From a virus, in IMG/VR virus record IMGVR_UViG_3300045988_159113: a stretch of 64,000 bases of DNA; one strand, 5' to 3'. Below, in pieces: positions 10,643-29,482 of the stretch. The translations under genes were made by a program, and so were the position numbers. Within the stretch, counting starts at the first letter, position 1; every line of letters begins with the position of its first letter. The notes under the pieces are model-generated. The model was not told the DNA's origin and searched no databases. It saw only the letters and a list, made by a program, of their open reading frames with translations.

Positions 10643-10661
10643 CCACAAAAATTAAAAAACG

Positions 10662-11021: not shown

Positions 11022-11088
11022 TCTATTTTTTCGGCTTAGCGCTATTATTCTTAATGATGGCGATGGATTCAAATGATGACGACTGGGT

Positions 11089-11544
11089 ATGAATAAAGGC
11101 GAGATTTATCAGAATGGCTTCTACCTGATGGTGGGGGCCATTCTCGGTATTATTGGGACCTGTACTTTCAACTCTGTGGCTACACAGCAAGAGGTCCTGA
11201 TAAAAACCGAGGTGAAAAGGGACACGATCGTTGCCATGAGGCCAGAGCTTAATGAGCAGAACCTGAAAGAGAAGCTCGCAAGATTGCCGCACCATGACGT
11301 GGTGTTTAAACAGGCAAAGCTTGAGTCGAGACTTGGCAAGTCAAAAGTATATAAGAGAACAAACAACCTATTTGGCTTGAGAAAAAACGGAGCCTATCGA
11401 TCTTATGATCACTGGACGGAGTGCGTGGATGATTACGAACGCCTTATCTCGTCCAGATATAAAGGCGGGTGTTATTACACCTTTCTCGAGAGAATAGGCT
11501 ATGCAGAAGATCCAAATTACATTTCTAAATTAAAAATGATATGA
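11089..11544 (+). CDS. membrane-anchored glucosaminidase/FlgJ-like peptidoglycan hydrolase
   Basis: N-terminal hydrophobic span FYLMVGAILGIIGTCTF. The core QAKLESRLGKSKVYKRTNNLFGLRK...YRSYDHWTECVDDYERLI matches the Glucosaminidase-domain signature (Q..lES..G.S.....NNlFG...y.sw..s..dy..ll). Confidence 0.65.
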   Translation: MNKGEIYQNGFYLMVGAILGIIGTCTFNSVATQQEVLIKTEVKRDTIVAMRPELNEQNLKEKLARLPHHDVVFKQAKLESRLGKSKVYKRTNNLFGLRKNGAYRSYDHWTECVDDYERLISSRYKGGCYYTFLERIGYAEDPNYISKLKMI

Positions 11545-11648
11545 GTAAGTATAAGAAATGTTTAGCAAAACGCTGGTGGGACAAATTGCCCGAATCAGAA
11601 AAGGCTGCTCTCACTCGTCTGGGATCAGTCAAGCAGCGGACAATATGA
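11541..11648 (+). CDS. hypothetical small protein (35 aa)
   Basis: ATGA overlap at both ends (11541-44 and 11645-48). MSKYKKCLAKRWWDKLPESEKAALTRLGSVKQRTI. Below the ORF-track cutoff. Confidence 0.4.
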   Translation: MSKYKKCLAKRWWDKLPESEKAALTRLGSVKQRTI

Positions 11649-12373
11649 TAACGTACCTGTTATTATCTAAGGATAGCAAGAGTTGCTACGCTTTAGATAT
11701 AACATGGGAAAATGGGAAGACTTGTTGCCGGATGAATGTCGACACCATCGCAACAGATATGACAATAAATGAGGTAAGAGCTATCAACTCAATGATACGA
11801 GAGTGCGTTGAGGGTATGCTTTGTCCTGTTTCTGTTATAGAAACCACAATATATTTTGGAGGTCATGCTTATTTCATTCAGGACGGCATCATCTATCAGG
11901 ATGATAAACAGTTTGTAGGTCCTTGGTTCAAGTTAGGTGATATGCTGAATGATTGGATGGAAAAGCGACCGTTCACTATTACTCCAAACGGCAACATGTT
12001 TCAACTTGTAGTTGGTGACACTTCGGAAGTCAAGGCGGCGAATAAGGTATGCATAAACGGATCGTTTTATAAAACCATCAACTTTGACCTTGCCAAGTCT
12101 CTCCCATGTTATACTAAGTTTATGACATTCCAGATTCCGGAAAATGACGGTCGGTTTATTCCATATTGCCACAATAAGGTTGAACTCTTGCGTGTATTGC
12201 ACAACATCAATAACTACGAAGACGTAGATATGCGAGATTACAAATTCGAGAATGGCAAATGGGAGATAACAGAACGCGTGCTTTCGCGACTGTATGAAAG
12301 AGTCATCGGTTCTTCGGAAGTGTCAAATGTTGAAGACATCAAAAAAGTCATAAGATTTTTAGATAATGTTTAA
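11645..12373 (+). CDS. PF6 family protein (divergent member A)
   Basis: ORF track 11558..12373. ATG 11645 (MITYLLLSKD) aligns with the N-terminus of member B and is ATGA-coupled to the small ORF. C-terminus: FENGKWEITE...IGSSEVSNVEDIKKVIRFL. Confidence 0.7.
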   Translation: MITYLLLSKDSKSCYALDITWENGKTCCRMNVDTIATDMTINEVRAINSMIRECVEGMLCPVSVIETTIYFGGHAYFIQDGIIYQDDKQFVGPWFKLGDMLNDWMEKRPFTITPNGNMFQLVVGDTSEVKAANKVCINGSFYKTINFDLAKSLPCYTKFMTFQIPENDGRFIPYCHNKVELLRVLHNINNYEDVDMRDYKFENGKWEITERVLSRLYERVIGSSEVSNVEDIKKVIRFLDNV

Positions 12374-13193
12374 GCTGTATCTATTATCTCAGGATAATAC
12401 CGAGATGTACAATGCATACGTAACCTTCAACAATGACAGAACTGACGTTAGAATTTATAGGTGTCAGAATGTGTTAAGCTTCGCCGAAGTTTTACAACAC
12501 AATATAGAAGTCAAATGTCTTGAAAGGATACTGTGCCCTATTTACTTCTATGCCAATCATTGGATTTTTGGGGGCTATAATTATGAAATTTTACATGGTA
12601 ATACTTATAAAGATAGAATCACTGGACCTCCCTGTTGGATGGCTGCACAGAACATAGCGACAGAAGCTTCTAAGTTTCTCGCCTCTCTCCCGATTCGCAT
12701 AACAGCACAGAAGGTAGACTGGCCAGATGAACGCACTTTCTACTGCTTGAATATGATAGGGGCAGACGGGCGTGCAATAACTAGGACGTCATTTCCTGTT
12801 AAGTTAGCGAATGGTTATCTCACTCTGGATTTTAAAATCCCAGGAGGATACGATGACCTTATCGAACTCTTCGATCTTAAACCTATGGATGACGGGATTA
12901 TTCCAGCGTGCAAAGGAAAGGATAAGCTCCACGCTCTGCTCAAAATATTAAACTCAAGAACTGAGCAAGATATTAAATGTTACCGTAAAGTGCTGACTAA
13001 ACAGTTGAAGAATGGCAAGTGGATCATTACCTCGCCAAATCCGCGTGATCTGATCGCTAGCGATATCTATAAACTGTATAGTGAGATTGTCGGCTATCCT
13101 GTGAAGAGGGGAATATCTCCTGAAGTAAACACCAAAGAAGATTTAGATAAAATTATCACATATTTAAAAGATGCCAAAATATTATCCCGGTAA
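12366..13193 (+). CDS. PF6 family protein (member B)
   Basis: 275 aa. C-terminal module LKNGKWIITS...VGYPVKRGISPEVNTKEDLDKIITYL. Confidence 0.75.
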   Translation: MFKLYLLSQDNTEMYNAYVTFNNDRTDVRIYRCQNVLSFAEVLQHNIEVKCLERILCPIYFYANHWIFGGYNYEILHGNTYKDRITGPPCWMAAQNIATEASKFLASLPIRITAQKVDWPDERTFYCLNMIGADGRAITRTSFPVKLANGYLTLDFKIPGGYDDLIELFDLKPMDDGIIPACKGKDKLHALLKILNSRTEQDIKCYRKVLTKQLKNGKWIITSPNPRDLIASDIYKLYSEIVGYPVKRGISPEVNTKEDLDKIITYLKDAKILSR

Positions 13194-13560
13194 GTATTCG
13201 ACCGACTTATCTAACCATATCATAGACTACCTAGGGTATCAGGCGGATAAGGAACTCGAATACGCCAAACCTGAACAGTTGGAGGTTGTCAAAAAGGCAG
13301 CCGACATACTTAAAGAGATCGCACTCCAGTGTCGAGACATCAATCCTATCGTCTTCGCTATAGCGAGGATGAAAAGGAAGGATAAAATCCTAAGGATTGA
13401 CAAGGAGACAGGAGAGAAAAAATACATCAAAGTTTGGAAGAAGGAGATTTTCCCACCCGGAAACTCCGGACGCCTTACTCTTCTTGATAAGGGCAGGATT
13501 GCCTGGACCAAAGATGAAATCATCCAGGAGAACAATCATGAGTATTTTTATAAGCCATAA
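13171..13560 (+). CDS. hypothetical protein, paralog family PF5 (copy a)
   Basis: 129 aa. Near full-length identity blocks with 13573..13962 (CYPGKYS, AKPEQ, DP.IFAIARMKRK.KILRI.K.TGE..YIK, EIFPPG.SGR.TL.DKG.IAWTKDEIIQENNHEY.YKP). Confidence 0.8.
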   Translation: MPKYYPGKYSTDLSNHIIDYLGYQADKELEYAKPEQLEVVKKAADILKEIALQCRDINPIVFAIARMKRKDKILRIDKETGEKKYIKVWKKEIFPPGNSGRLTLLDKGRIAWTKDEIIQENNHEYFYKP

Positions 13561-13572
13561 AGTCAGATAATT

Positions 13573-13962
13573 ATGTCGAAATGTTATCCAGGTAAATATT
13601 CAAGAATTTTGGCTGACCGTATCATGGGTTATCTAAGGTTTCAGTCAGACCAAGAACTTGAATGTGCCAAACCAGAGCAAATCGAACTTATCAAATGCGT
13701 CATGAGTACTCTCAGGCAAATTGCTGATCAGTGTCGATATATTGATCCTGTTATCTTTGCTATTGCGAGGATGAAAAGGAAAGGAAAAATTCTCAGGATT
13801 AACAAAGCTACTGGAGAAAGAAGGTATATCAAAATTTTGGAAAAAGAAATCTTCCCTCCTGGTGATTCTGGGAGAATCACTCTTTCTGATAAAGGTAAAA
13901 TTGCCTGGACAAAAGATGAGATTATCCAAGAAAATAATCATGAATACCTTTACAAGCCGTGA
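13573..13962 (+). CDS. hypothetical protein, paralog family PF5 (copy b)
   Basis: 129 aa. Tandem duplicate of 13171..13560. Confidence 0.8.
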   Translation: MSKCYPGKYSRILADRIMGYLRFQSDQELECAKPEQIELIKCVMSTLRQIADQCRYIDPVIFAIARMKRKGKILRINKATGERRYIKILEKEIFPPGDSGRITLSDKGKIAWTKDEIIQENNHEYLYKP

Positions 13963-14174
13963 AGTATTACGCAGGAGATAGAGTCTCGCAAACTTGGTTT
14001 GAGTGGTGTGTCCGCAGTTTGAGATTTGGGTCTTGTAAACCTGAGTCTTGCCCAAACTGCAAGACATACCATGCAGCCAATGAGAAAGTCAAAAAATTGT
14101 TAAAAAGTTATATCAAAAGACAGTATGCAGGAAATGATTGTTTTGAACGGGAAGATGTTGAAAGAGGAAGCTGA
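13959..14174 (+). CDS. hypothetical Cys-rich small protein
   Basis: GTG start overlapping the preceding TGA (GTGA). 71 aa with C..........C....C..C spacing. Confidence 0.4.
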   Translation: MKYYAGDRVSQTWFEWCVRSLRFGSCKPESCPNCKTYHAANEKVKKLLKSYIKRQYAGNDCFEREDVERGS

Positions 14175-14305
14175 AGAGCTTAACAGATACACTTCTCGTT
14201 TTGGCGCGTTCTGAGCGCGTTAAATTCTTCTGGTGAACAATTACACCAGAAAGACGAGATCTTCGCTCTACGAGCCAGCAAATGGCAAAAATCAGGTATT
14301 GAGAG

Positions 14306-14545
14306 ATGAAAAACGTATACGAGATTAAAGGTAAGGGGTTCATCGTTGGTGATTACCCTGCCTGTAACAGTGACAAATGGCTGATGATTGACGCCACAGC
14401 TTTCAATGATACCAACATTAGGAAAACGTTGGTATACGGAGAGGTTGCCGTGTATCTTGGCAGTGTTAAAGAGGTAATCGGAAGACACAAACGGCAGATG
14501 CACGAGATAAGGCGATACACAAAGGCCATATTGAGAAGATCATAG
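14306..14545 (+). CDS. hypothetical protein
   Basis: ATG ORF, 79 aa. Terminates at TAG, with a TAA 7 codons further on. Confidence 0.45.
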   Translation: MKNVYEIKGKGFIVGDYPACNSDKWLMIDATAFNDTNIRKTLVYGEVAVYLGSVKEVIGRHKRQMHEIRRYTKAILRRS

Positions 14546-14586
14546 ACTAACGAGATCATATTTTGTTAATATGAAATTCTTAGGAT

Positions 14587-14880
14587 ATGACGGACAATTA
14601 CCCTATGGGTACTGCAGACGATCCCAAGGCTCCATGGAACCAGAAAGAGGAACCTTTTAAAAGTGTAGATGTGGCAGTGGTTGCTGTAATGACTAAATAC
14701 TGCACACTATGGAACAGAGGCGAGAGTCTGGAAGAAAGCTATTCAAATTCCGAGTATTCGATACAGGATATGTTGGATATGCTCAAGGTCTACGTTGAAA
14801 AAGACGTGGATAATAAAAACAGAAGTGCTATCCTTTCATCTATCGATGGATGGTACACGGAAACAATAACGATAGAATAA
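14587..14880 (+). CDS. hypothetical protein
   Basis: ATG ORF, 97 aa. Confidence 0.6.
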   Translation: MTDNYPMGTADDPKAPWNQKEEPFKSVDVAVVAVMTKYCTLWNRGESLEESYSNSEYSIQDMLDMLKVYVEKDVDNKNRSAILSSIDGWYTETITIE

Positions 14881-14892
14881 AAAAAACAAGAA

Positions 14893-15207
14893 ATGGAAAG
14901 ATTCAATGGAAAGCTTGTGAGACTTTATGAAGTCCACGGAGAATTCGCAGAGCTTCTGTGTTATATGCGCGTAAAGCGTGCGTTTAATAAAGAAGACAAG
15001 TCCGATGATGTCGTCCTCGATGGAATCATTGTCTCATTCGAGCTTAACAAAAACACCGGGCGATTGGTTCTCGATACAAAGAAAGCGTCGACATGTAAAA
15101 CCTTCGCTGAGTACGAAGAGCTGCAAGTGATCAGTGAGTCAGAACTTGCTGGTATAGCTCAGGCTTGCTTTGATGTTGCACTGTATAAAGCTGGTGTCAT
15201 ATCATGA
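14893..15207 (+). CDS. hypothetical protein
   Basis: ATG ORF, 104 aa, with an A-rich leader. Confidence 0.6.
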   Translation: MERFNGKLVRLYEVHGEFAELLCYMRVKRAFNKEDKSDDVVLDGIIVSFELNKNTGRLVLDTKKASTCKTFAEYEELQVISESELAGIAQACFDVALYKAGVIS

Positions 15208-15584
15208 GCAGCTATTTTACGATCTCTCTCAGGCCAAAAAGGTCTGAGGGGGACCTGTCGCTTGTTTCTTATTCAAGAGTGTCGGAAGTCTATGATGAAC
15301 TTTACGAGGGAACCACAGACAGTCAGGGCGAATTGACTAAGGAAAAGATCGATGGGATTGTGGGCAATCTGGAGGCCAAAATATCCAGAGATAAAGACCA
15401 ACTGCATAAGTATCACGAACTGGCAAAAATCAACACAGAATATGTCGAGGATTATATTTCTTTTGGCGAGTATGTCGATAATGAAATCGAGACACTCAAC
15501 AAAATCAAGACAATCCAGGACATAGTGCATGATACCTATGACGGTTATAATAGTTTCGAATCTGTTAATTGGAAAATAGAATGA
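15204..15584 (+). CDS. hypothetical protein
   Basis: ATGA-coupled ORF, 126 aa. Confidence 0.6.
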   Translation: MSSYFTISLRPKRSEGDLSLVSYSRVSEVYDELYEGTTDSQGELTKEKIDGIVGNLEAKISRDKDQLHKYHELAKINTEYVEDYISFGEYVDNEIETLNKIKTIQDIVHDTYDGYNSFESVNWKIE

Positions 15585-15940
15585 AAGCAAAATATAAATA
15601 TGGAGACATTGTTTCCTTTGAACTTAATGGTGAAAAGATGCAGGGCATCGTGTACATAGTGGACCACAATGGCACGTTTGAACAAAGCACCTATCCATCT
15701 TATGACATTATGGTGAACCACATGCTGTACAAGCACATCACGGAACCGTGTGTGTCTCTTGTTCTTGCTTCACCATTTCATAATGCCAGGTATGTGTTTG
15801 ATGAGGATTTCGCTAATCGTCTCCTCTGTCTGGCTGAGAATGCTAAGGATAACTCAGTCTCAGGATTTGCTGACGAGATGATAGAAAAGGCAAAAGTCTT
15901 GATCGAGTACCAAAAACTCGCAAAGTATGGTGACCTGTAA
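15581..15940 (+). CDS. hypothetical protein
   Basis: ORF track 15569..15940. ATG 15581 forms an ATGA overlap with the previous stop. Confidence 0.6.
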   Translation: MKAKYKYGDIVSFELNGEKMQGIVYIVDHNGTFEQSTYPSYDIMVNHMLYKHITEPCVSLVLASPFHNARYVFDEDFANRLLCLAENAKDNSVSGFADEMIEKAKVLIEYQKLAKYGDL

Positions 15941-16787
15941 TTTTTATATCCCACTATCTGATACAAATAAATACCTCAGAATTGACTATCTCAATGCTCG
16001 TTATAGCGTAGTAGCCGGCACTATTAATTTTGATCTTTTTAGTGCTATAAACAGGATAAATTTTACAAGTTATCAACATGACTATGGCATAGCTCCTATT
16101 ATCTCCATAAACAAAAACGGAGACGTTAAGATAGGCAACGAGATATTCAACAGTATCTGGCACAATGTGCCTGGCTCTGCCCGTCAGCTTTTTGGTTGGG
16201 AGTGGACAGATGAAAGGTTCGGTGAGTATATAGTGGAGAGAATACGTCAGCTAATTTTTATACCGGCTGGTTCTCGTGATGATTTCAGACTTTGGATTGG
16301 TGATAACAGTGGACGCGTGCGCATTACTCATTTCATGGATAAGGTGACATTGATATCTATGGATGATGTTTATCTTTCTTGCATATGGAATCATTATCAT
16401 ATAGCACGGAAGGAGATATCGCGGATTATTGGCCATACATTTTCAGGCTATGTGTTTCCATTTTGTCCTTATGAAGAGACAGTCTACAAAATCATCAACT
16501 ACATAAACGAGAACTATAAGTCAGGGACTACAATCTCTGCCTCTATTGATACAGTCACGATTGGCTGCAAACAGTACGAGATAAAGCAGACAAAGAAAGG
16601 TATGTATTACCTGGCGGATTTCCCTGCTGCCGAGCATCGCGTTCTTCTCAAGTCCTATATCATCGCCCTTTTTCCTGGAAAAAGATTCGTGGGAGTATTC
16701 CCAGAATTTGAGACAAAAACAGAATTGTTAAAATTTATTAGCAGAATAAAAGATGATAGAAGATTTTCTGAAAAAAAAGATAGGTGA
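15927..16787 (+). CDS. PF6 family protein (member D)
   Basis: 286 aa. TVYKIINYIN, IKQTKKGMYYL, and C-terminus GVFPEFETKTELLKFISRIKDD. Confidence 0.8.
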   Translation: MVTCNFYIPLSDTNKYLRIDYLNARYSVVAGTINFDLFSAINRINFTSYQHDYGIAPIISINKNGDVKIGNEIFNSIWHNVPGSARQLFGWEWTDERFGEYIVERIRQLIFIPAGSRDDFRLWIGDNSGRVRITHFMDKVTLISMDDVYLSCIWNHYHIARKEISRIIGHTFSGYVFPFCPYEETVYKIINYINENYKSGTTISASIDTVTIGCKQYEIKQTKKGMYYLADFPAAEHRVLLKSYIIALFPGKRFVGVFPEFETKTELLKFISRIKDDRRFSEKKDR

Positions 16788-17640
16788 CATAACCGGCTTC
16801 GAGATATTCTTCAGATTTGGAGCCAGACTTTGGTTTCGATTTAATCTTATAACTGGGGAACATGAACTAGTCAATCGCGCTGATCATTGGGAAGATGCAA
16901 ATGATTTTGCTATGCGATATTACAAATATCGGTTCCTAGTAGATCCACCTATCCGCATCATTGGTGACAACAAGATACTGATGCCAAATTTCGAATACGA
17001 CACAGAAAGGAAAAAGTACAAGATAACACTGTACGATTGTGAAGAGCGAAGTTTTACAATCTATGGATTACTTGAACATCTACGTCGTCGTGTAAAGCGT
17101 CTTGTCTTTGTTCCTGTTCAATATTGCCAGTTTATCATGAACTTTGGAAATCTTCATGTGATGGCTGAGATCACGGAAACTCCACGATGGTTTCAAATAG
17201 TGTGTGATAACGACATGATACCTAAGATGTTGGAATATTACAGGATAAGAGAAACACCGCCTAATGTTCAAATCGTGGATGGATCAATGATCATAGGCGA
17301 GACTCTAGAGGATATCCTGGAATTTATTAATCAGGTAAACGCTAAGTGTTATAACATCGTAGATGTTGACATTCCAAATAAGGGCTTAACTTTCTCAATT
17401 GAAGACGATAACATTATCATCAACGGAGAGAAGTTTGAGATCAGAAAAAGCAGGATGTCAAAGTTCTATGTGCGTGGATTTGATGAAAACACCAGTCATA
17501 AGATTGCGGAGTTTTTCAAGCAACAATATCCAGACAAACGCACAACGGGAGTATTCCCGGAGTTTAAAACAAAAGAGGATTTAATAGATTTTATTTTGAA
17601 ATTAAAAGATGACTCAAATATATTTGAAAACATATCGTAG
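16753..17640 (+). CDS. PF6 family protein (member E)
   Basis: 295 aa. C-terminus TGVFPEFKTKEDLIDFILKLKDD. Stop is TAG, with a TGA 4 codons further on. Confidence 0.8.
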   Translation: MIEDFLKKKIGDITGFEIFFRFGARLWFRFNLITGEHELVNRADHWEDANDFAMRYYKYRFLVDPPIRIIGDNKILMPNFEYDTERKKYKITLYDCEERSFTIYGLLEHLRRRVKRLVFVPVQYCQFIMNFGNLHVMAEITETPRWFQIVCDNDMIPKMLEYYRIRETPPNVQIVDGSMIIGETLEDILEFINQVNAKCYNIVDVDIPNKGLTFSIEDDNIIINGEKFEIRKSRMSKFYVRGFDENTSHKIAEFFKQQYPDKRTTGVFPEFKTKEDLIDFILKLKDDSNIFENIS

Positions 17641-18394
17641 ATTACATGTCTATGATATAGAAACTGAAAAAGTCGAAATCTTCACTGGAAGGTTATCAGA
17701 CGAGGTAACAATCCGAGAGGACGAAAACAGACTTGCACCAATCAGTCCCTATATTGAGAATGTTATATCTATCTTTGGTGTAAAGTGCGCCCTTGCTGTG
17801 AGTTATAGAACAAAGGACGGAATGCGGATCAATGTACCTAGATCAAGTGCTCCGATCCGGTATCTATTCAATAAAACAGACGGCGATCCGTACATTAACA
17901 CTATCGACTTTATCCGTAAGCTTCAGAGTATTTTAAAGTATTCGTCGAAGTATTACAAATTCATTGGCTCAACTTCCATGGTAGGAAATGGCCAGCAATT
18001 CTTCAATTTGGCTAACAAAGAAGATATCAGATCAGCCAACATTAGGTACAACTATGACCAAATAAAAAATCCGTTCTGCAATTATATGCGGAAGAATTTG
18101 GTGAATGTATGGCTCGAGAGTATATCGGGTGCAATAGACAATCTTCATTTTAGGAATTTCATGACATGGTATATTCTGGAAGGAAATGTTCCTGAAGATC
18201 TGGAAATTGTCAAAACATGCCTCGGTATGTATTACATAAAATCACAGCGAGGAGTTGACCCATTCCAAGGCATACAAAACAAGTATGATTTTGTATCTGC
18301 AATTGTAGGATACAAAGTAAGAAAAGGCATCTCTCCAGAAGTGAGAACTGAAGAAGATGCCAAAGCAGTCATCGAACGTTTAAATTGTAGATAA
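17609..18394 (+). CDS. PF6 family protein (member F)
   Basis: 261 aa. C-terminus IVGYKVRKGISPEVRTEEDAKAVIERL, the same subtype as member B. Confidence 0.75.
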   Translation: MTQIYLKTYRRLHVYDIETEKVEIFTGRLSDEVTIREDENRLAPISPYIENVISIFGVKCALAVSYRTKDGMRINVPRSSAPIRYLFNKTDGDPYINTIDFIRKLQSILKYSSKYYKFIGSTSMVGNGQQFFNLANKEDIRSANIRYNYDQIKNPFCNYMRKNLVNVWLESISGAIDNLHFRNFMTWYILEGNVPEDLEIVKTCLGMYYIKSQRGVDPFQGIQNKYDFVSAIVGYKVRKGISPEVRTEEDAKAVIERLNCR

Positions 18395-19326
18395 TGGGAT
18401 TTTTTATAGCTTATAATAAAATTTACCTCGCAGAGAGTAACGGAAGGATTACCTCCCTCTTGAATATCGACGAGATAGATTTTCCGTGTACGTTCATAAA
18501 TAACGAAGTGAATTCCTATGATGAACTCAAACAGGTATTGATAGATGAGAACACAAGCCGGTTCTTTCAATATCAGCGAACGATGGGACATAAGCCAGTT
18601 TTGGAAATTGCGACCACCAAAAAGCGTAGTAGGTTTACGATTTCGTTTTATGATCAAGTGATCTATGAGGAGTTTGAAGATGGAACTATTGCGGTTGCAA
18701 ATAATCTAAGCAAGGCCGTTAGGGAAGTTTTGAATTCTTCAGATTCTATTTTCACAAAGTATCAAATACTCCTTGAGTTGTTGCCTATCAAAACGATAGG
18801 GAAATATATGTTCAGGATTGGGCGAAATGAAAATCTTAATCGTTCTATGAATGGTATGATTTACAGATACGGTGAAGCATTCTATCTTGTAGGCAGCAGG
18901 CTGACAGATTTTTTTGATGAGGCCGTTATCGCTCAGCTGCTTCTCAGAAATCAGCTCAACTATATTGACGACGGTATCTTTAAGTCCAAAATAGCCAGCG
19001 TCTACACCACAATATCTTTTATGGATTTTATCCGGGAACTCAATTCATCTATCTATCTTACCAATAGAGAAAAGATTGAATTGAACGGAGATCAAATCAT
19101 ATATGGAGACAATAAGCTTTCAATTAAGCAATCCCCGACAAACAACAAGTGGTTCATCGCTGGTCCTTTTGATCTTATCCTTAACATGTTCGGAGCAGAA
19201 ACTCGAGCTGAACTCGATGAATATATCTCAAAACAGATAGGAAAGAAAAGAAGGAATGGTGTATTTCCAAATTGTGACTCAAGGGATGAAATAATAAAAC
19301 TTGTAGAGTCATTACAAAATGAGTAA
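18394..19326 (+). CDS. PF6 family protein (member G)
   Basis: 310 aa, TAATG-coupled. NNKWFIAGPFDLILNMFG...IGKKRRNGVFPNCDSRDEIIKLV. Confidence 0.8.
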   Translation: MGFFIAYNKIYLAESNGRITSLLNIDEIDFPCTFINNEVNSYDELKQVLIDENTSRFFQYQRTMGHKPVLEIATTKKRSRFTISFYDQVIYEEFEDGTIAVANNLSKAVREVLNSSDSIFTKYQILLELLPIKTIGKYMFRIGRNENLNRSMNGMIYRYGEAFYLVGSRLTDFFDEAVIAQLLLRNQLNYIDDGIFKSKIASVYTTISFMDFIRELNSSIYLTNREKIELNGDQIIYGDNKLSIKQSPTNNKWFIAGPFDLILNMFGAETRAELDEYISKQIGKKRRNGVFPNCDSRDEIIKLVESLQNE

Positions 19327-21333: not shown

Positions 21334-22340
21334 ATACATTAAAATACTGGTATTATTCCAAGAAGCAAAAGACATTTGCTTTTCTTGGATTCCCGTCTAT
21401 TGATGATTCACATATCTCACGTGTACAATTTCCAATTACTATTTCTGATTCTTCTGGGCCTCACAGGTTCACTAACGAGAATGCACTTGTTTCTTATTGT
21501 GCTGAGCACAACCGACAAGTAGAGAAAGAGTACGAGGAAACATTCAAAATAGAACCTCCATATCTCTTACAGCCATATATTGATTACGATGGCAGTATGA
21601 CGTATTATGTTTATTACAGAGATCGTGAGCTTGTATTTGAAGATATGCATGTCATTCCTAAGCTTAACAAAGACATTTGGAATACTGTGGAAGATGCTCC
21701 TATTTACGAATTTCTTAGAAGGCATCGCGGTCAACTGTTTGATTCTGCGATGATGACACAGTTTCACAAGTTCGCGCTGGCGAATGAAGTGTTCTCTCCA
21801 TGTCATGCGACCTTTGGACGTGTTAGGTTTGCAGTGAAGCTAGGGGATCGCATAAGTATTGCAGAAGTTTGTGGACGTCTTAGCAGAGAAGACCCTTGCT
21901 TCTTGAACTTTGACAGCAAAGCAGAGTCAAACAAAGAGGTTTTCGAGTATTACAACATATCACGAGAATATCTTTCCAATCTCTTCCACATCGATACAAC
22001 AGGAGATTGGCCGTACTCTGCAAAACAAACAGTGTATGACATCATCAATTACATAAACAGTACAAAATACGCGAACTGTTCGATACCTCAGGGAATAATT
22101 ATTCAAGGCAATGTTGTCAAGTATCAATCTGCAACATTTACCATAGAGCAAACTAAAAACTCAAAGTGGTATTTGTGCGGTGATATTAATAGCATCCTTG
22201 AAATGTTCGGGCTCGATAGCAAAGATAAGCTAAGAACATATGTGAATAGTATTCTCGGAGAGAAGAAAAGATCCGGAATCTTTCCTGAATGTGAAACAAG
22301 AGAGGAAATCAAGAAACTCATAACATCAATAACAACATGA
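21330..22340 (+). CDS. PF6 family protein (member J)
   Basis: 336 aa, ATGA-coupled. FKIEPPYLL, DWPYSAKQTVYDIINYIN, NSKWYLCGDI, GIFPECETREEIKKLI. Confidence 0.85.
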   Translation: MNTLKYWYYSKKQKTFAFLGFPSIDDSHISRVQFPITISDSSGPHRFTNENALVSYCAEHNRQVEKEYEETFKIEPPYLLQPYIDYDGSMTYYVYYRDRELVFEDMHVIPKLNKDIWNTVEDAPIYEFLRRHRGQLFDSAMMTQFHKFALANEVFSPCHATFGRVRFAVKLGDRISIAEVCGRLSREDPCFLNFDSKAESNKEVFEYYNISREYLSNLFHIDTTGDWPYSAKQTVYDIINYINSTKYANCSIPQGIIIQGNVVKYQSATFTIEQTKNSKWYLCGDINSILEMFGLDSKDKLRTYVNSILGEKKRSGIFPECETREEIKKLITSITT

Positions 22341-23347
22341 ACAATTTTGCATATTATGTATATAACGACATCAATAATTGTGTTTATAGTCTTGATCTTT
22401 TAAGTGAGACAGTAACCAAGTCGCTTGATTTTTGGATTAATACTCATACTGGATATCATTTTTTCCATGAAATATTTAATTCAAAACCCGAGCTTTTGAG
22501 ATGTCTGAATGATATGAATCAGGCAACGGCTAATTCATACACTAGGACATTTTTGATAGATCCGCCGTATTACGTAAAGCAGTCATGGCAGCCAGTAACG
22601 AACATATTGTCAACTCGTATAACAGCCTATAATATGACCTGTACATTCATTGCAGAAGGAGGAGGTCCTACTGGTTGTGAAAATGGCACGGAGTTCGAGA
22701 AGTTTCTTTTTATGAATAGAGAAAAGCGTTTCGATATTTATTATCTTGCACGCATTCATAAGTTTCTTATCAAATCTAAAATTGTTAGACCAGTTGTGAA
22801 TGATGGGAGAGCCTTGCCTAGGTTAATTGACGATATACTGTTCAATGTTGCCCTTGGTACTGGTGATACAACAACAGCAAAGATTGATAAATTCAGTGGG
22901 TTTTTCCTCAACCTCAAAGGTTGTACTAATGACCAGATCTTCAAGACTTACGGAATAGAAAAAGCAAGTCTTCAAAGATTCCTGACTAAGCCAATGGTCG
23001 CTACTCAGTATTGGCCAGAGGACACGCTGGATTCATTGGCTAAGATTATCAACTATATCAACAACAACTTCTACGCTTTTTGCGGTCCGAAAACAACATT
23101 GTCAATTTCTGGTAATGAAATTATGTTTTTCGGAACTTCTCTTTTCGTTTCACAATTGAAGAATGGGAAGTGGTACATCAAAGGTGATATGGAAAAGATA
23201 TGTCAGCTGTTTGGTGTATCCACTTGTGTAGAGCTTAGGCGTTTTGTTGATAGAACACTTGGGGAGAAAATACGCCATGGTATATTTCCCGAGTGTGATT
23301 CGAGAGATGAGATTTTTAAATTACTAGATAAAGTGAAAAATGTCTGA
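22337..23347 (+). CDS. PF6 family protein (member K)
   Basis: 336 aa, ATGA-coupled. FLIDPPYYV, YWPEDTLDSLAKIINYIN, NGKWYIKGDM, GIFPECDSRDEIFKLL. Confidence 0.85.
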   Translation: MNNFAYYVYNDINNCVYSLDLLSETVTKSLDFWINTHTGYHFFHEIFNSKPELLRCLNDMNQATANSYTRTFLIDPPYYVKQSWQPVTNILSTRITAYNMTCTFIAEGGGPTGCENGTEFEKFLFMNREKRFDIYYLARIHKFLIKSKIVRPVVNDGRALPRLIDDILFNVALGTGDTTTAKIDKFSGFFLNLKGCTNDQIFKTYGIEKASLQRFLTKPMVATQYWPEDTLDSLAKIINYINNNFYAFCGPKTTLSISGNEIMFFGTSLFVSQLKNGKWYIKGDMEKICQLFGVSTCVELRRFVDRTLGEKIRHGIFPECDSRDEIFKLLDKVKNV

Positions 23348-24323
23348 TTTAAAATATCTATATTATTCAATTAAACAAGGGAAGCTTCTAGCTCTTTATC
23401 TTGAAGATGGAAAGTTTGACCTTTACCCTGTAAGATTTCCGTTTGAATTTGAATCGAAAACTTTTTCTGGTCCAACTGGACTTGTTCTTTTTTGTGAAAG
23501 TTATAACAAAACAACAGCGAAGAAGTACAGGAAGCTTTACGGAATCAAACCACCATATGTTCTTCATACTTATATTGGTATCGGAGGAGAAGTTGTGTGT
23601 TTATTTACTTTTCACGGGAACAAATTGTCTGTTACTGATGGATTGGACTTTCCAAAATTAAACACTACAATTTGGAATCAGGAAATTGATGCGCCACTTG
23701 ATAACTTCTGCAAACAACACCAAGACAAAATGTTCAACTTGTCGGCAGTGATTGCATTTCACAGGTTCTTCATTGATAGCATGGTTATCGCACCGATAGG
23801 TCCCGGCTATTTTAATGCAAAACTTGACGGGATTATTTATCATACTGAGATAAGAGCAGATTCAGATTTTTGGTATCTGTATTTTTCAAATTCTCTATCA
23901 AACGATCATATCTTTGAGTATTATAATATACCAAAAGATGAAGTTTTGGAAGTGATAAACCAAAAGCATTGGGCTGGGGCTTGGCCAGAGTCAAGTAAAG
24001 AAAACCTGTTCAAACTTATTGATTATATCAACAGAAGGTACTATGCAAATTTTGTATACGAGAGTTTTAAGATCACGGAAAATTCTATCGTGTCCAATTT
24101 TGGATGTTTGGATTTCAAGCAGAACAAGAAGAGTGGCGGCTGGTTCCTATCCGGGAATATGAATGTCATTCTCGCTTTGTTCAAACTTGAATCTATAGGA
24201 GATTTGAAAGCTCGTGCGAATGAAATTCTCGGAAAACAAAAACGAAGTGGTATTTTCCCAGAATGTGATTCGAAAACAGAACTCATTGCACTCATAAAAA
24301 CAATTAAAGATGAACGCAGATAA
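23340..24323 (+). CDS. PF6 family protein (member L)
   Basis: 327 aa. YGIKPPYVL, AWPESSKENLFKLIDYIN, SGGWFLSGNM, GIFPECDSKTELIALI. Confidence 0.85.
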   Translation: MSDLKYLYYSIKQGKLLALYLEDGKFDLYPVRFPFEFESKTFSGPTGLVLFCESYNKTTAKKYRKLYGIKPPYVLHTYIGIGGEVVCLFTFHGNKLSVTDGLDFPKLNTTIWNQEIDAPLDNFCKQHQDKMFNLSAVIAFHRFFIDSMVIAPIGPGYFNAKLDGIIYHTEIRADSDFWYLYFSNSLSNDHIFEYYNIPKDEVLEVINQKHWAGAWPESSKENLFKLIDYINRRYYANFVYESFKITENSIVSNFGCLDFKQNKKSGGWFLSGNMNVILALFKLESIGDLKARANEILGKQKRSGIFPECDSKTELIALIKTIKDERR

Positions 24324-25287
24324 TGTATATTATCTTTTCTATGATCAGGTAAATCAAGAATTGATAAAGCTGGATCTGTTGGAACTTTCTGACTTACCAA
24401 ACAAAACATGTTTCGTAACTTTCCCGTTTGTGCTCAATGGTAAATATGCGCACAATGGTCATGACTTGGTTAACTTAATTAACGAGTATAACGGAAGAGT
24501 CTATAACAGGTATCAGGATGAGTACAAGATCAAACCGCCGTATTTCATAAAATGTGCATATAATCAAATCGGACGTGTTGATGTTTCCATATTCTACAAG
24601 AAAAAACATTTCTTGTTTTATGATAATAAGATAAGCAATCCTGACGATTATCCTATTATTGATTCTTTCGTTTCCAAGCATAAGTCTCTACCATTCTGCG
24701 GTGTCTATATGAAGAAACTTCATGAGTTCATTATGGATAACCAAATCGTGCGCCCAAATCCAAAACCAGGAGGCATTTATTTCAATGTTGTGATAAAGGG
24801 CAAGATTTACAAGGCTTATATTTGTAAAGAAAGTACCGATCATTGTTTTCTCTCTTTCCCATTAACAGGAAACAGATATGCCTTTGATTGTTATAATATA
24901 AGCGAGGAAGAAGTGTTGAATGTTCTTGGTATCAATGAGTGGCAAGGTGATTGGCCTGAAACACCAGAAAGAAAAGTGTATGTTCTGCTTGATTATATCA
25001 ACGAGAACCGTATGGCTGGACCTGTTATCGACAGGTTAAAGATAGACGGCAATAAGATCATCACATCTTTTGCTGAGTTCGAGATAAAGCAAACGAAGAC
25101 TGGCAAGTGGTATATTCGGGGAAATATTGAGCAGATATGCTTGTTGTTTAAAGTTCCTAATATTACGGAACTCAAACATCTTGTCAACAAGATAATTGGC
25201 AACAAGATACGGCACGGTGTCTTTCCGGAATGTGATTCGAGAGAAGAGGTCACGAAACTTTTAAAATCAATTAGAGATGACAGATAA
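24310..25287 (+). CDS. PF6 family protein (member M)
   Basis: 325 aa. YKIKPPYFI, DWPETPERKVYVLLDYIN, TGKWYIRGNI, GVFPECDSREEVTKLL. Confidence 0.85.
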   Translation: MNADNVYYLFYDQVNQELIKLDLLELSDLPNKTCFVTFPFVLNGKYAHNGHDLVNLINEYNGRVYNRYQDEYKIKPPYFIKCAYNQIGRVDVSIFYKKKHFLFYDNKISNPDDYPIIDSFVSKHKSLPFCGVYMKKLHEFIMDNQIVRPNPKPGGIYFNVVIKGKIYKAYICKESTDHCFLSFPLTGNRYAFDCYNISEEEVLNVLGINEWQGDWPETPERKVYVLLDYINENRMAGPVIDRLKIDGNKIITSFAEFEIKQTKTGKWYIRGNIEQICLLFKVPNITELKHLVNKIIGNKIRHGVFPECDSREEVTKLLKSIRDDR

Positions 25288-26236
25288 GTTTTATTATCTT
25301 TTTTATGACCGTATAAACGGAAAGATAATCAGATTAGATTTGTTTAACGCTAACCTATCAATAGGCGAAGCCGTTTCTGTGATGTTTCCATGGGCAATTG
25401 ATGGGAGGCTTACACATAATGATGGCGAAGTAGTGATGGCGATCAACAAACACAACCAAAGAACATATAAACGATATATTGAGAAGTTTAAAATCAGACC
25501 TCCGTACTATATCGAAAATGTGCTCGGCGTTCGTGGTATGATCAATGCTATTGTTACTTACAAAAGTAGGTCACTTTTGCTTAAAGAGTACATGCTTGTC
25601 GACAAGTATAATGATGTCGCTCCATTCTTTGCTAAATATGACTATGCGAAGTTTAACATCTGTTATATGATAGGGCTTCACAAGTATATCTTGGACAATC
25701 AGATCATACGTCCTAGCAAACATAATAGCGGAATGTTTAGCGTCATGATACTTGGTAAAAGCTATATCGCGAATGTTGTAGTTTCACTAGATCATTGCTT
25801 CCTTAACATAGAAGGTATATCAAACGGAGCAGTCTTCAATCATTATAAAATAGGTAAATCAAAAGTCCTTGAAGTACTCAGGATAGACAAATGGTACGGA
25901 GACTGGCCAGAGACTACCGAAGACAAGGTGTACGAGTTAATCAACTATATCAACGAGTGCAGAAGCTCAAGCACTAATCCTGATAAAGTTGAGATAAGCG
26001 GAAATGAAATCATCACAGATTTTGCTAGACTTGAAATAAAGCAAAGCAAAAATGGTAAATGGTATATCAGTGGCTCGCTCGAGAATATATTGAAATTGTT
26101 TCATATTGACGACCAAGTCGAGTTGAAGCAAATGGTCAATAACCTTTTCGGATCTAAGCGACGCGCTGGTGTATTCCCTGAACTTGATTCTCGTGATGAT
26201 GTTATTAAACTAATCAAAGTAACGCAACATGAATAG
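25277..26236 (+). CDS. PF6 family protein (member N)
   Basis: 319 aa. FKIRPPYYI, DWPETTEDKVYELINYIN, NGKWYISGSL, GVFPELDSRDDVIKLI. Stop is TAG, with a TGA 2 codons further on. Confidence 0.85.
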   Translation: MTDKFYYLFYDRINGKIIRLDLFNANLSIGEAVSVMFPWAIDGRLTHNDGEVVMAINKHNQRTYKRYIEKFKIRPPYYIENVLGVRGMINAIVTYKSRSLLLKEYMLVDKYNDVAPFFAKYDYAKFNICYMIGLHKYILDNQIIRPSKHNSGMFSVMILGKSYIANVVVSLDHCFLNIEGISNGAVFNHYKIGKSKVLEVLRIDKWYGDWPETTEDKVYELINYINECRSSSTNPDKVEISGNEIITDFARLEIKQSKNGKWYISGSLENILKLFHIDDQVELKQMVNNLFGSKRRAGVFPELDSRDDVIKLIKVTQHE

Positions 26237-27281
26237 AGAAACTGATTTCTTTTATCTATTTTACAATAGAACCAACAAATACTTGGTACAGTTGGATCTG
26301 TTGAGTAATTACTCGGAGAATATATCTTGTCGAACAGTAGATGGCGATAAGTACAAGCTGTATGGCAAGTATTTCAAAGCAGAGGATGAGTTTATCCAAG
26401 CTGTTAATGATTTCAATGTGTCGATGGCTCAAAAGTATTTTAGCAAGTTCAAGATTCTTGCACCGTATAGATTAGAGTGTCAGCTCTTATTCTATATAGA
26501 CGGAGGGGCAGACTACAACATATACATCTCAACACATGACAGATGCTATCGTTTCATTTATGGCAAGGAAACGCCTGCAAACTTTATAGAATTTGCACGT
26601 ATCCGCAATATAGAGCCGGGGACTTTCAATCTTCGCTATATGCTGAACCTACATACTGCACTTTTGAACTCTGCAGTGTTCAGGGCTGGATATGACAGGG
26701 GCAAGTTCTGTTATACTGTAAACTGTGGAGAAAATTCTTTCTGTGCTCATATCGCGAAGTCAAGAGTAAGAGCTGGCTGTTATTTCCTAGCCTTTAGTCC
26801 TAATATTCCGAATGACTACGTCTTCGCGTATTACAACGTCAATAGGCAAAACATCAAGGATCTCTTGACTGTAGACTCCTGGACCGGAAAGTGGCCCGAG
26901 GATGTCGAGTCGACAATCTACGCGATCATGCAGTATATGAACAGAACATATATCGCAAATGCCAATTTTAGTTTTGTAATAGATGATGATGCTGTCATGT
27001 TCAACGGTACCAGATACCCATTCAAACAAGCAAAGAAGGGAGGCTGGTTCTTGTCTGGCAATATTGAGAAGATACTTCAGATGTTCGGTCTTGATAGTGT
27101 CGACTCATTACGTAAGACAGCGAACCTATATCTTGGAGCAAAGAACAGACCGGGAGTTTTCCCAGAATGCGACACAAAAGAAGAGTTGATAAACTTGATT
27201 AAAATGTTCAAAGATGGAGAGCGAAAAATCAAAATTTCCGGTTCTTCTGTACTTCGATCCATGCAGCCGGATGATCTATAA
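26229..27281 (+). CDS. PF6 family protein (member O)
   Basis: 350 aa. FKILAPYRL, KWPEDVESTIYAIMQYMN, KGGWFLSGNI, GVFPECDTKEELINLI. An unusually long tail overlaps the next member by 68 nt. Confidence 0.8.
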   Translation: MNRETDFFYLFYNRTNKYLVQLDLLSNYSENISCRTVDGDKYKLYGKYFKAEDEFIQAVNDFNVSMAQKYFSKFKILAPYRLECQLLFYIDGGADYNIYISTHDRCYRFIYGKETPANFIEFARIRNIEPGTFNLRYMLNLHTALLNSAVFRAGYDRGKFCYTVNCGENSFCAHIAKSRVRAGCYFLAFSPNIPNDYVFAYYNVNRQNIKDLLTVDSWTGKWPEDVESTIYAIMQYMNRTYIANANFSFVIDDDAVMFNGTRYPFKQAKKGGWFLSGNIEKILQMFGLDSVDSLRKTANLYLGAKNRPGVFPECDTKEELINLIKMFKDGERKIKISGSSVLRSMQPDDL

Positions 27282-28233
27282 GTTCCCGCTTATCTGGACA
27301 ACGGACATAGAACACTTGAAGTTCGAGATACTTATTGAAGAACTCGGATCAAGTACTGTATGGTTTCGTGGTATGAAATATGAGAACACGGAGGAACTCC
27401 TGCGTTTTATATCCAAAGAGAACGAGAAGACGCGTAAAAAGTATAAAGAGAAATATGGCATTTTTCCGCCATATGTTATTACTCAATGTACTTTTAACAC
27501 GACTTATTCAATTTGTATTAGAACGCACAATTGCGAAAACTATGCTGTGTTTTTATTTGAAGATGGGGAAAAGCTTCCTGAGTGTATTGCAAATGGAGAA
27601 GTTCCTGTTTTTCGCAATGCAGAAATTAAAGCTAGCGATAGGTTTAATATTAAAACACTCATCAAGTTGCATAACTCCATCGTCTCAAATTATGTAGTAC
27701 GTCCTGCGATTTATTTGGATTGTTGTGATAGGTATGTTGCAAAAATAAACGGCACGCTTTATGATGCTAGGATTGTTAGAGTTGCTGATAATACTTTCTA
27801 TTTACAGTTTTTCACGATTCCCAGCATAAAACTTTTTAAGTATTATGACATAAAGTTTACAGAATACGAGCCTATCATATCTCATGACTTCCGTTTGATG
27901 GATGGCTATATCCCTGTGGATAATAAAGAGCACATCCTAAAAATTCTTGACTTCATCAATAGTAAGCGCTGTGCTATGGAGTATGCATCGTTTACTATCA
28001 AAAGCGATACTATCCTAAGTAATGGATGTATGTTCAAGATAGTCCAAACGCCAACTGGCAAGTGGTACATAAAGGGTAAGAGTGACGACTTCCCTAAGGT
28101 GTTCAAGTGCTCAAGTATGGAGGAGATCAGAGAGTTTGCGATCAAGCTATTCGGGCGAAGGATTACTGGAGTATTCCCAGAGTGCAACACCAGGGAAGAG
28201 TTGTTAACTTTAATCGAGAAGATGAAGAAATGA
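27214..28233 (+). CDS. PF6 family protein (member P)
   Basis: 339 aa. YGIFPPYVI, ILKILDFIN, TGKWYIKGKS, GVFPECNTREELLTLI. Confidence 0.8.
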   Translation: MESEKSKFPVLLYFDPCSRMIYKFPLIWTTDIEHLKFEILIEELGSSTVWFRGMKYENTEELLRFISKENEKTRKKYKEKYGIFPPYVITQCTFNTTYSICIRTHNCENYAVFLFEDGEKLPECIANGEVPVFRNAEIKASDRFNIKTLIKLHNSIVSNYVVRPAIYLDCCDRYVAKINGTLYDARIVRVADNTFYLQFFTIPSIKLFKYYDIKFTEYEPIISHDFRLMDGYIPVDNKEHILKILDFINSKRCAMEYASFTIKSDTILSNGCMFKIVQTPTGKWYIKGKSDDFPKVFKCSSMEEIREFAIKLFGRRITGVFPECNTREELLTLIEKMKK

Positions 28234-29255
28234 TAATCCAACTTTTAGAAGAACCGACTTATCTATACTTTGACCAGATGGTGATGAAAGTCTACCAGCT
28301 GCCAATAATGCATACGATACAGTTGTCGGCTGTTGAAGTTTACAACGTACGACATCCTCAAGGCATCATGTCAATGCGCGAACGAGAAGTTGACCTATGG
28401 TTTCGAGATGCGCATTACAACACGATCGGTGATCTCTTGAAGTATATAAACAAGAGAAACGAGAGAATGTTCAAATATTACGTTGAGAAATTCGGAATTT
28501 CTCCTGCTTACTTTTTGGACCAAGAAGCTGATGCGGATAATGTAGTCATTACCACTATTGTAACACATCTCGATTCTTACCGTTTTGAATGTGATGGTCG
28601 GATAGATTATGAAATAATAGAGAAGACTATTCCCGTTTTCAGTTATGCAGACATCAAAGAAGATGACCGTTTTGGCGCAGAAGTTCTGGTGAAGATGCAC
28701 AACTCCATCATCAAAAACCAGGTGATAAAACCCACCATATACAAGAACGTTTACACCGTAAGAATGGGCGATTTGTTTGCAAAAGCAAAAATCGATACGA
28801 TGGATATAGGTAGGGTGCCTGGCTATCATTTGCATTTTCTATCTTATCATGATAGGATTGTTTTTGATTATTACCACATACGATATTCTGACTTTGCTTA
28901 TGTGATCCCTGATACCGAATTGAGTAACGGGATACCTGTTGGCCCAGAAGAAGATATCAGAAAGCTCATCAACTATATCAATATGACATATTGCGTTTGT
29001 GAGGGCTCAAAGTTTAGTGTGAATGATAATATTATCATCTGCAATAAGCACAAGCTTGAAATTACACAAACGCGAAACGGCAAATGGTATATCAAGGGTG
29101 ATGTTTTACTCGCTTTTGGGTTGGATAGTATGGAGGCAATCAGAAAGGCTGCGTCTGATCTCTTCGGTAAAAAGAGGATGAACGGAGTATTCCCGGAATG
29201 CGATTCCAAGGAAGACCTCCTGCGACTCGTTGAAGTTCTTAGAAAATACAGGTGA
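28230..29255 (+). CDS. PF6 family protein (member Q)
   Basis: ORF track 28107..29255. ATG 28230 (MIIQLLEEPTYLYFDQ) is ATGA-coupled and aligns with family N-termini. FGISPAYFL, IRKLINYIN, NGKWYIKGDV, GVFPECDSKEDLLRLV. Confidence 0.8.
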   Translation: MIIQLLEEPTYLYFDQMVMKVYQLPIMHTIQLSAVEVYNVRHPQGIMSMREREVDLWFRDAHYNTIGDLLKYINKRNERMFKYYVEKFGISPAYFLDQEADADNVVITTIVTHLDSYRFECDGRIDYEIIEKTIPVFSYADIKEDDRFGAEVLVKMHNSIIKNQVIKPTIYKNVYTVRMGDLFAKAKIDTMDIGRVPGYHLHFLSYHDRIVFDYYHIRYSDFAYVIPDTELSNGIPVGPEEDIRKLINYINMTYCVCEGSKFSVNDNIIICNKHKLEITQTRNGKWYIKGDVLLAFGLDSMEAIRKAASDLFGKKRMNGVFPECDSKEDLLRLVEVLRKYR

Positions 29256-29347: not shown

Positions 29348-29427
29348 GCTAACAAAAAAGTAATGCTATGAGAAAAATTAAAAATGCTATCAAATGGGTT
29401 TCTAGGCGTATGTCTACGAATTCCTAC

Positions 29428-29462: not shown

Positions 29463-29482
29463 GCAGCAAAGATTAATTTTTA

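Follow-up and report, generated by a model that had tools for sequence, protein, structure and literature searches.

The analysis of a 64,000-nucleotide (nt) stretch of viral DNA, IMG/VR record IMGVR_UViG_3300045988_159113 (hereafter the window), revealed one family of sixteen intact genes on the + strand, located at 11645-13193 and 15927-29255 and taking up 15.1 kb in total. It is a selected, old and tandemly expanded family of non-structural phage proteins in which no membrane segment is predicted. Both the family and the module of about 85 amino acids (aa) that it carries appear to be undescribed; viral multigene families as a phenomenon are already known. We propose that the proteins may be a repertoire of cytoplasmic binders or adaptors, the variable regions of which would recognise various host components that differ from strain to strain, so as to take the host over or counter its defences. 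To this reading we assign a probability of about 0.45.

Results

Sixteen tandem genes belong to one family

The original prediction, made from the sequence of the window, had listed sixteen intact and strongly diverged paralogs. Open reading frames (ORFs) are present at all of these positions, and profile and iterated searches confirmed that they form one family (genes are named below by their start coordinates). Fourteen of the genes, from 15927 to 29255, are contiguous: stops and starts overlap and there is no intergenic gap, an arrangement that suggests one co-transcribed and translationally coupled unit. The last ten (19319-29255) form a head-to-tail core, also as predicted, in which successive genes overlap by 4-14 nt, except for 26229 and 27214, which overlap by 68 nt. 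The ten core proteins align from end to end with 21 invariant columns and are 25-33% identical to the first of them. Two ORFs could start further upstream, 11645 at ATG 11558 and 28230 at GTG 28107; the starts at 11645 and 28230 are favoured by the N-terminal motif of the family and by the gene calls in relatives.

A profile of the ten-copy core was searched against all 658 six-frame ORFs of the window. It matched 18394 (E 1e-28), 15927 (3e-22), 16753 (5e-15), 12366 (1.7e-5) and 17609 (2e-3) and missed 11645 (E 5.4). Iterated search identified the latter as an unmistakable paralog of 12366, and the searches started from 12366 and from 17609 each retrieved the whole family. ORF 39833-40234, also found by iteration from 12366, is a lysine-rich coiled-coil with hydrophobic ends and was rejected as a result of profile drift. 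A broader module profile, which contains the window's own C-termini, matched all sixteen genes (11645 at 1.9e-7) and no other ORF of the window. The C-terminal motif that had been attributed to every member was recovered in part: G[VI][FS]PE is present in 14 of the 16, with GVFPNC in 18394 and no loop in 11645, while the strict form NGKW[YF]I.G is found in only four.

At the nucleotide level the copies share only short motifs of 60-78% identity, the longest exact common run being 26 nt, and the same array recurs in independent assemblies. These two observations exclude an assembly artefact with collapsed or expanded copies, which the original prediction had named as a possible source of error.

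The members differ in length and in the sequence of the loop. The two genes upstream code for the most divergent protein (11645..12373, 242 aa), whose orthologs in related contigs are 89-94% identical, and for a short form with GISPEV (12366..13193, 275 aa), which is matched by the core profile over its C-terminal 60 aa. Four genes precede the core. GVFPEF is found in 15927..16787 (286 aa), present in all related contigs, and in 16753..17640 (295 aa), which has orthologs at 88-93%; they are followed by 17609..18394 (261 aa, GISPEV) and 18394..19326 (310 aa), with orthologs at 41% and 37%, respectively, in the distant lineage L015. The core begins with 19319..20332 (337 aa), which has the fastest-evolving orthologs (64-93%), and continues with 20320..21333 (337 aa), 21330..22340 (336 aa), 22337..23347 (336 aa), 23340..24323 (327 aa), 24310..25287 (325 aa) and 25277..26236 (319 aa, GVFPEL). 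The next gene, 26229..27281 (350 aa), codes for a C-terminal tail of about 20 aa and is the one with the long overlap; 27214..28233 (339 aa) and 28230..29255 (341 aa) complete the array, and the orthologs of the last copy are 80-97% identical in about 40 protein clusters.

Protein architecture

The core proteins consist of a variable alpha/beta N-terminal region of about 145 aa followed by two tandem modules of about 85 aa. AlphaFold2 modelling of 24310-25287 (alignment of 64 sequences) gave a mean predicted local distance difference test score (pLDDT) of 85 and a predicted template modelling score (pTM) of 0.71. The isolated module was modelled with a pLDDT of 83 as four short strands, two helices, the G-x-[FW]-P-E loop and a final helix. 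In the core proteins the second, degenerate module spans residues ~160-235 (hhalign probability 96.9%, E 1.8e-10, 72 columns), and the module profile also detects it in 22337 (1.3e-4) and 23340 (1.2e-7). The internal and C-terminal modules have the same predicted order of secondary structure elements, and in their alignment the internal 'G.WPE....Y.II.YIN' corresponds to the C-terminal 'GVFPEC.S.EE..KLL..I'. By profile-profile comparison, the N-terminal regions R1 and R2 are not detectably related either to one another or to the module. No membrane segments were predicted, the Kyte-Doolittle maxima over 19 residues being 0.61-1.79; the highest of these, in 19319, falls in a region aligned to predicted strands.

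Relatives of the module were sought exhaustively with HMMER among 1.84 billion representative proteins. Among the 80 matches were about 26 full-length relatives. In the remaining ones the C-terminal ~85 residues form an independent module. Proteins of other phages contain 1-6 of these modules, a single one where the protein is 95-130 aa long and 2-6 where it is 320-630 aa long; the six are in P0150. Some of the module-bearing proteins have N-terminal SH3-like repeats with a weak match to SH3_15, below the Pfam cut-off. Pfam found nothing in 57 module-bearing distant relatives, except in one unrelated SpaA protein. The match to P0179 (1109 aa, with a SpaA domain and eight identical weak stretches), a repeat-rich surface protein, was rejected as spurious, and the contigs that carry P0178 and P0172 are too short for an informative gene context.

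Other searches for the module gave little. A degenerate DNA pattern for L-G-Y-x3-G-x-F-P-E-C identified one true module protein in IMG/VR (L012); it also gave 21 chance matches in GTDB genomes, none of which encodes the module. In bacterial and archaeal representative genomes (185,579 species) no relative was detected by a scan for core-family motifs, confirmed by tblastn, or by one strict DNA pattern for the module. A protein search with a short alignment of the module returned a single match, probably because of the word pre-filter. When the 57 distant relatives served as the query, most of the proteins retrieved were from the same clade, and there was no Pfam domain or name among the 120 matches listed.

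Selection on the copies

The ratio of nonsynonymous to synonymous substitution rates (dN/dS) was determined pairwise between the window and four relatives. It is 0.11-0.50 for the family and below 1 for each copy (0.27-0.42 for 19319 and 0.42-0.50 for 23340), and 0-0.18 for most neighbouring genes; the exceptions, 13573 and 30157, have values of 0.5-0.7 that are based on very few substitutions. Purifying selection acts on each copy, although the proteins evolve several times as fast as those of most neighbouring genes.

This change is not distributed evenly. Identity between paralogs is 0.40 in the C-terminal module versus 0.22-0.29 elsewhere, and the entropy among orthologs is lowest in this module in three of the four groups tested. 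Sliding dN/dS in the C-terminal module is mostly 0.04-0.35, reaching 0.71 in 23340. Patches with dN/dS of at least 1 were found within residues ~60-240 of four genes, for example at residues ~61-120 of 23340 (above 1) and ~161-240 of 27214 (1.1-1.6), all of them rough estimates from few substitutions in non-independent pairs. The C-terminal module is the constant and most constrained part of the proteins, and the N-terminal and central parts vary most.

Orthologs, gains and losses

The best 120 database matches are all orthologs of particular copies of the window, with 64-95% identity. The order of the array is shared by twelve related loci, whose copies are 1:1 orthologs of those in the window at 67-98% identity. 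The original prediction had described the repertoire as maintained and diversifying. Maintenance is supported by a dN/dS below 1 for every copy, whereas the second term does not fit: the copies are old paralogs and not the products of recent or rapid duplication, as each has its own orthologs in the relatives.

Complete loci in close relatives contain 13-16 copies, frameshifted ones included, and the missing copies are central ones. Gene 19319 is missing in L039-L041, 21330 in L001, L002 and L005 (it is frameshifted in L040), 22337 in L039, 23340 in L039-L041 and 24310 in L006, L007 and L038. Frameshifts were also found in 20320 (L006, L007 and L038) and, upstream of the core, in 12366 (L005, L006, L007 and L038). 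Individual central copies are dispensable in some genomes. The flanking members of the family are present in every relative examined.

More distant lineages carry shorter arrays. L015 has nine copies and the same upstream synteny; L013, a 178-kb phage, has five copies of ~280 aa and the same downstream synteny. An all-against-all comparison of the window with L015 identified order-conserved orthologs at 31-41% identity, and three L015 copies are orthologs of 26229 at 41%. In L013 the flanking genes are 52-80% identical to those of the window, but the family members only 24-35%. Lineage-specific duplicate pairs were found in the window, where 20320 is the recent duplicate partner of 21330 (46% identity) and 24310 is a duplicate partner of 25277 (43%), and in L015, which has two pairs at 42-46%. 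The clade occurs in many human-gut metagenome assemblies; some ortholog clusters comprise 50-250 member sequences, and many of the contigs are 100-200 kb long.

The ordered orthologs, together with the lineage-specific duplicate pairs, reveal a birth-and-death pattern: the family expanded in place by tandem duplication, and it evolves by lineage-specific duplication, divergence to 25-46% identity and loss or frameshifting of central copies. As it consists of tandem paralogs and shows lineage-specific duplications, losses and pseudogenes, it can be described as a viral multigene family with birth and death.

Family and fold assignment

The original prediction could assign the genes to no family, and the same outcome was obtained here with Pfam, PHROGs, NCBIfam, PADLOC, the PDB sequences and Foldseek against PDB and BFVD. 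Nor did any profile search place them in a known group with a housekeeping role. Ten members were searched against Pfam and nothing exceeded the cut-off, the best scores being Glyco_hydro_85 on 18394 (E 0.0014, 18.6 bits with a cut-off of 22.2) and I-HmuI_NUMOD-like on 22337 (E 0.049). PHROGs v4, NCBIfam 20 and PADLOC 2.0 gave no significant match to the family. Comparison of profiles with PDB sequences returned no match for one profile, and for the module profile a designed protein at best (E 0.044).

For structures, a Foldseek E-value below 0.001 and a template modelling (TM) score above 0.5 were taken as a fold match. The full-length model reached E 0.053 and TM 0.15 at best in PDB and E 0.011 and TM 0.10 in BFVD; for the model of the module the best PDB match had E 0.58. 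Tandem SH2 proteins, the top Foldseek matches, have a probability of at most 0.15 and TM of at most 0.16 and were regarded as noise. Homing endonucleases (HNH, GIY-YIG or LAGLIDADG) or other selfish genes were also rejected, since neither Pfam nor PHROGs revealed a nuclease domain and the copies occupy fixed syntenic positions with 1:1 orthologs.

Phage genome and boundaries of the array

The related contigs that carry the array are 120-197 kb long, and one of them is labelled as a human gut metagenome. The host phage of the array belongs to a clade of uncultured human-gut phages of ~180-200 kb. From the related contigs of 193-197 kb we judge its genome to be about 196 kb. The share of the family, put at roughly a quarter of the 64-kb stretch in the original prediction, is 23% for the window and would be only ~7.6% for the genome. 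No match among GenBank phages was found by megablast with 4-kb and 25-kb queries or by tblastn with one family member, and nothing specific on this clade or on such a paralog array was found in the literature. The nearest relatives of the Dda-like helicase belong to uncultured human-faecal phages (38-40%), followed by crAss-like and Bacteroides phages at ~30%, and, as judged by eye, the sequence before start codons is A-rich and lacks an obvious Shine-Dalgarno motif. These features, with the gut metagenome contigs, make a host from the Bacteroidota probable.

All genes of the window are on a single strand and its G+C content (GC) is about 0.40; GC within the array (window positions 18000-28000) is 0.36-0.38 versus 0.40-0.43 in the flanks. 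Three tRNA genes (Lys-TTT, Leu-TAA and Gln-TTG) are located at 600-1164. Two sigma-70-family factors (8097-8774 and 61927-62766) bracket the early and replication region. A glucosaminidase gene (11089-11544) lies upstream of the array. In two relatives an additional gene with a DUF723 domain (325-418 aa; L001 1186-2163, L002 1075-2331) follows the glucosaminidase gene and precedes the first family member; the equivalent place of the window (~11545-11644) lacks this gene, which is probably a mobile insertion. Downstream of the array, at 32701-38534, there is a cluster of ATP-grasp, Peptidase_C26, phiEco32-like COOH-NH2 ligase, GATase and amidoligase genes, which, by their Pfam names, are predicted to modify peptides or metabolites; the distant L013 phage has the same cluster at 52-80% identity. 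The replication and nucleotide-metabolism module codes for a DnaB-like helicase, Sak4, primase, exonuclease, DNA methyltransferase, NrdD, Dda-like helicase and dUTPase. The array is located upstream of this module, in a non-structural region; searches across the window found no capsid, tail or packaging genes. A helicase ORF at 41763-42923 matches its PHROG profile over the middle part alone (303-626 of 986 positions), and the 462 nt before it contain no long ORF yet look coding, so that the gene, at 40509-42923, may be split, frameshifted or interrupted.

The terminator at 29260-90 and the promoter-like element that had been proposed as boundaries of the array were not substantiated. The former folds at -6.7 kcal/mol, like shuffled sequence (z 0.01), and was missed by the terminator scan; sigma-70-type and Bacteroides-type promoter patterns occur at chance level. 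A strong GC-rich hairpin was found at 29427-29463 on the + strand, in the 227-nt gap that follows the array and just upstream of gene 29483. It has no immediate T-run. Region 29395-29482 folds at -33.4 kcal/mol (z -4.1) and none of 200 shuffles was as good; the hairpin is a possible candidate for the true 3' boundary or for a regulatory element. A possible ORF of 29 aa (about 29369-29458), noticed by eye, overlaps it.

Small genes and other tandem paralogs

Six small + strand genes at 13171..15940 (129, 129, 97, 104, 126 and 123 aa) separate the two blocks of the family and are not members of it. They are not matched by the core or module profiles, none of the six has a PHROG match, and none of the five scanned with Pfam (15569-15940 excluded) has a match there. 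Of the five measured (again excluding 15569-15940), four are highly conserved, with dN/dS of 0-0.18, and 13573 is not: its dN/dS reaches 0.50, with dS saturated in the comparisons with L005 and L006. The adjacent genes 13171 and 13573, both of 129 aa, are paralogous, with 67% identity between the proteins and 75% nt identity along 237 nt. Gene 13573 is 97-98% identical in L003 and L001 and just 67% in L005 and L006, a pattern that looks like allelic replacement. In L013 relatives of the small genes 15204-15584 and 15569-15940 are interleaved among family members (8798-13817), and these two genes may be functionally tied to the family.

At least five other, smaller sets of tandem paralogs are present in the window. 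They include 5365, 5950 and 6531 (41-46% identity), the hexapeptide beta-solenoid proteins 3412, 4179 and 7118 (32-37%), 1484 and 2348 (53%), and 8771 and 9253 (40% over 91 aa). Upstream of the array (1484-9984) the window is generally duplication-prone, and the sixteen-gene family is the extreme case.

Discussion

The described data are consistent with the idea of a host-interaction effector repertoire, which fits the faster evolution relative to the neighbours, the gain and loss of copies, the combination of a constant C-terminal module with a variable remainder and the non-structural context. The fourteen contiguous genes would be transcribed together and their translation coupled. The constant C-terminal module could serve as a common scaffold or as a dock for a common partner, and each variable region would have its own target among the host components that differ from strain to strain. 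The outcome of such recognition would be host takeover or counter-defence, and the whole set would widen or stabilise the range of host strains that the phage can exploit. A more specific version is that the ~85-aa module is a new protein-interaction domain and the array a combinatorial counter-defence or takeover repertoire, in which each paralog, by means of its variable N-terminal and central regions, neutralises a different strain-variable host factor and the module couples all of them to one partner. This we offer only tentatively, as it is rather doubtful.

Several points weigh against the repertoire. Its mechanism is deduced from the evolutionary pattern and from other viral multigene families, and known anti-defence proteins are usually small, unrelated singletons and not paralogs of ~330 aa. 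The raised dN/dS could be due to relaxed constraint instead of adaptation, and the windows with values of 1 or more rest on few substitutions in non-independent pairs. Duplication may be a general property of this genome region and not specific to the sixteen genes. Finally, N62, Y69, Y79, H138 and E318, invariant in all ten core copies, and C319, present in nine of them, could mark an enzyme or ligand site.

Among the other explanations, the one that survives best is that the proteins are regulators which bind DNA or RNA, each with its own target sequence or structure, and tune phage or host expression; we regard it as unlikely. The genes have a phage sigma-factor gene on either side and the replication module downstream, which suits such a role, and the isoelectric points (pI) are mostly 8-9. 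Eleven of the sixteen members are mildly basic (8.1-9.1), but the other five are acidic or near neutral (5.2-6.1). Tandem repetition of the module within single proteins is frequently seen in nucleic-acid-binding domains; nevertheless, searches of Pfam, PDB and BFVD detected no helix-turn-helix, zinc-finger, KH, S1 or other family of this kind. The closest approach was a weak likeness of the strand-turn-helix at G-x-F-P-E to RNP1 of the RRM domain, seen in the profile search of PDB sequences. This likeness to chloroplast cS22 RRMs is non-significant (E 0.14-0.31), Pfam identified no RRM, and the modelled order of four strands and then three helices differs from the beta-alpha-beta-beta-alpha-beta RRM fold. 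The RRM assignment was therefore rejected.

The invariant polar residues listed above, together with Q272, which is likewise present in 10/10 core copies, could instead belong to an enzyme family, for example a protein- or nucleotide-modifying one, with a different target for each paralog. The proteins could also be substrates or adaptors of the amidoligase, ATP-grasp and GATase cluster, since the array lies 3-5 kb upstream of the genes of this cluster both in the window and in the L013 lineage. Such proximity is weak evidence in large phage genomes, which are broadly syntenic. In addition, the wider module family keeps only G-x-[FW]-P, with Glu and Cys freely replaced (FPYC, FPTV, FPSC and SPEV), and no fold or profile similarity to any enzyme was found. 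We consider this explanation improbable.

The probability is slightly lower again for a place in the virion, where the proteins would be alternatives to one another in receptor binding, in decoration or as ejected internal proteins, much like the multi-depolymerase arrays that some large phages carry. Tandem arrays of host-recognition genes do occur in large phages, and differences in copy content between close genomes would be expected of host-range determinants. Cell-wall hydrolase genes flank the region as well (the glucosaminidase gene upstream and, in relatives, Peptidase_M15_3 downstream). However, the searches across the window found no capsid, tail or packaging gene, and the neighbours code for sigma factors, metabolic and replication proteins. 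The conserved part of the proteins is C-terminal, whereas receptor-binding arrays usually share an N-terminal anchor, the models show small alpha/beta domains instead of beta-helix or fibre folds, and neither BFVD nor PDB yielded a significant match to a tail or fibre protein. A receptor-binding or depolymerase array was rejected on these grounds.

In a last view the copies would be by-products of a duplication-prone, GC-poorer region, largely dispensable and individually without a specific function. This view agrees with the smaller paralog sets, the lost or frameshifted central copies and dN/dS values above those of most neighbours, but is very improbable given that dN/dS is well below 1 for every copy, that the copies are still intact at 25-33% identity, that positional orthologs are kept into a distant lineage and that the flanking members occur in all the relatives examined.

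Whichever function applies, about 15 kb is spent on one family that every annotation library tried here misses, in a clade common in gut metagenomes. The compact module, which recurs in unrelated phages and whose confident models fit no known fold, is a possible new domain. Losses of single copies between related genomes constitute a natural experiment and could be tested for correlation with host strains. A real repertoire of host-component binders would be among the largest host-interaction gene families known in bacteriophages, and would open a route into the ways in which gut phages deal with host diversity at the strain level. If the repertoire is not real, the family remains a well-delimited target for structure determination and domain curation.

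Comparison with known systems

Occurrence of the module 1-6 times per protein is reminiscent of repeat-type binding domains such as SH3b-like, CW_binding_1 and RRM. Its G-K-W-Y-[IL] hairpin resembles G-x-W-Y-Y of choline-binding repeats, and its strand-turn-helix resembles RNP1. It differs from all three in having no meaningful profile score, no Foldseek match and a model topology of four strands and three helices. CW_binding_1 was rejected because there is a single such hairpin per module, unlike the tandem ~20-aa repeats of that family, and PF01473 was not detected at E of at most 1 in 10 members or at most 0.001 in the 57 relatives.

The second, looser comparison is with the host-takeover or early gene clusters of large phages, such as the host-takeover module of Bacillus phage SPO1 and the Alt, ModA and ModB paralogs of T4. 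As in these, the genes are on the same strand, tightly packed with overlapping stops and starts, non-structural, near transcription factors and ahead of replication genes, and their products had no match outside phages in the searches made. The takeover clusters mostly encode small unrelated proteins with at most 2-3 paralogs, whereas the array encodes 16 paralogs of ~240-350 aa. No ADP-ribosyltransferase or other known takeover domain was found with Pfam or NCBIfam.

Multigene families that arise by tandem duplication and loss are well known in large DNA viruses: BRO of baculoviruses, MGF360/505 of African swine fever virus and the ankyrin/F-box family of poxviruses. There is no sequence or fold kinship with them (Pfam gave nothing significant for Bro-N, KilA-N or ankyrin), and the host here is bacterial. 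The same features are nevertheless observed in both: adjacent diverged paralogs, variable copy number, lineage-specific duplication and loss, a conserved domain combined with variable parts, and a non-structural nature. Should the combinatorial repertoire prove true, the array would be the counterpart in a bacterial virus of the immune-evasion families of eukaryotic viruses, and would make strain-level host range experimentally tractable in an abundant gut clade.

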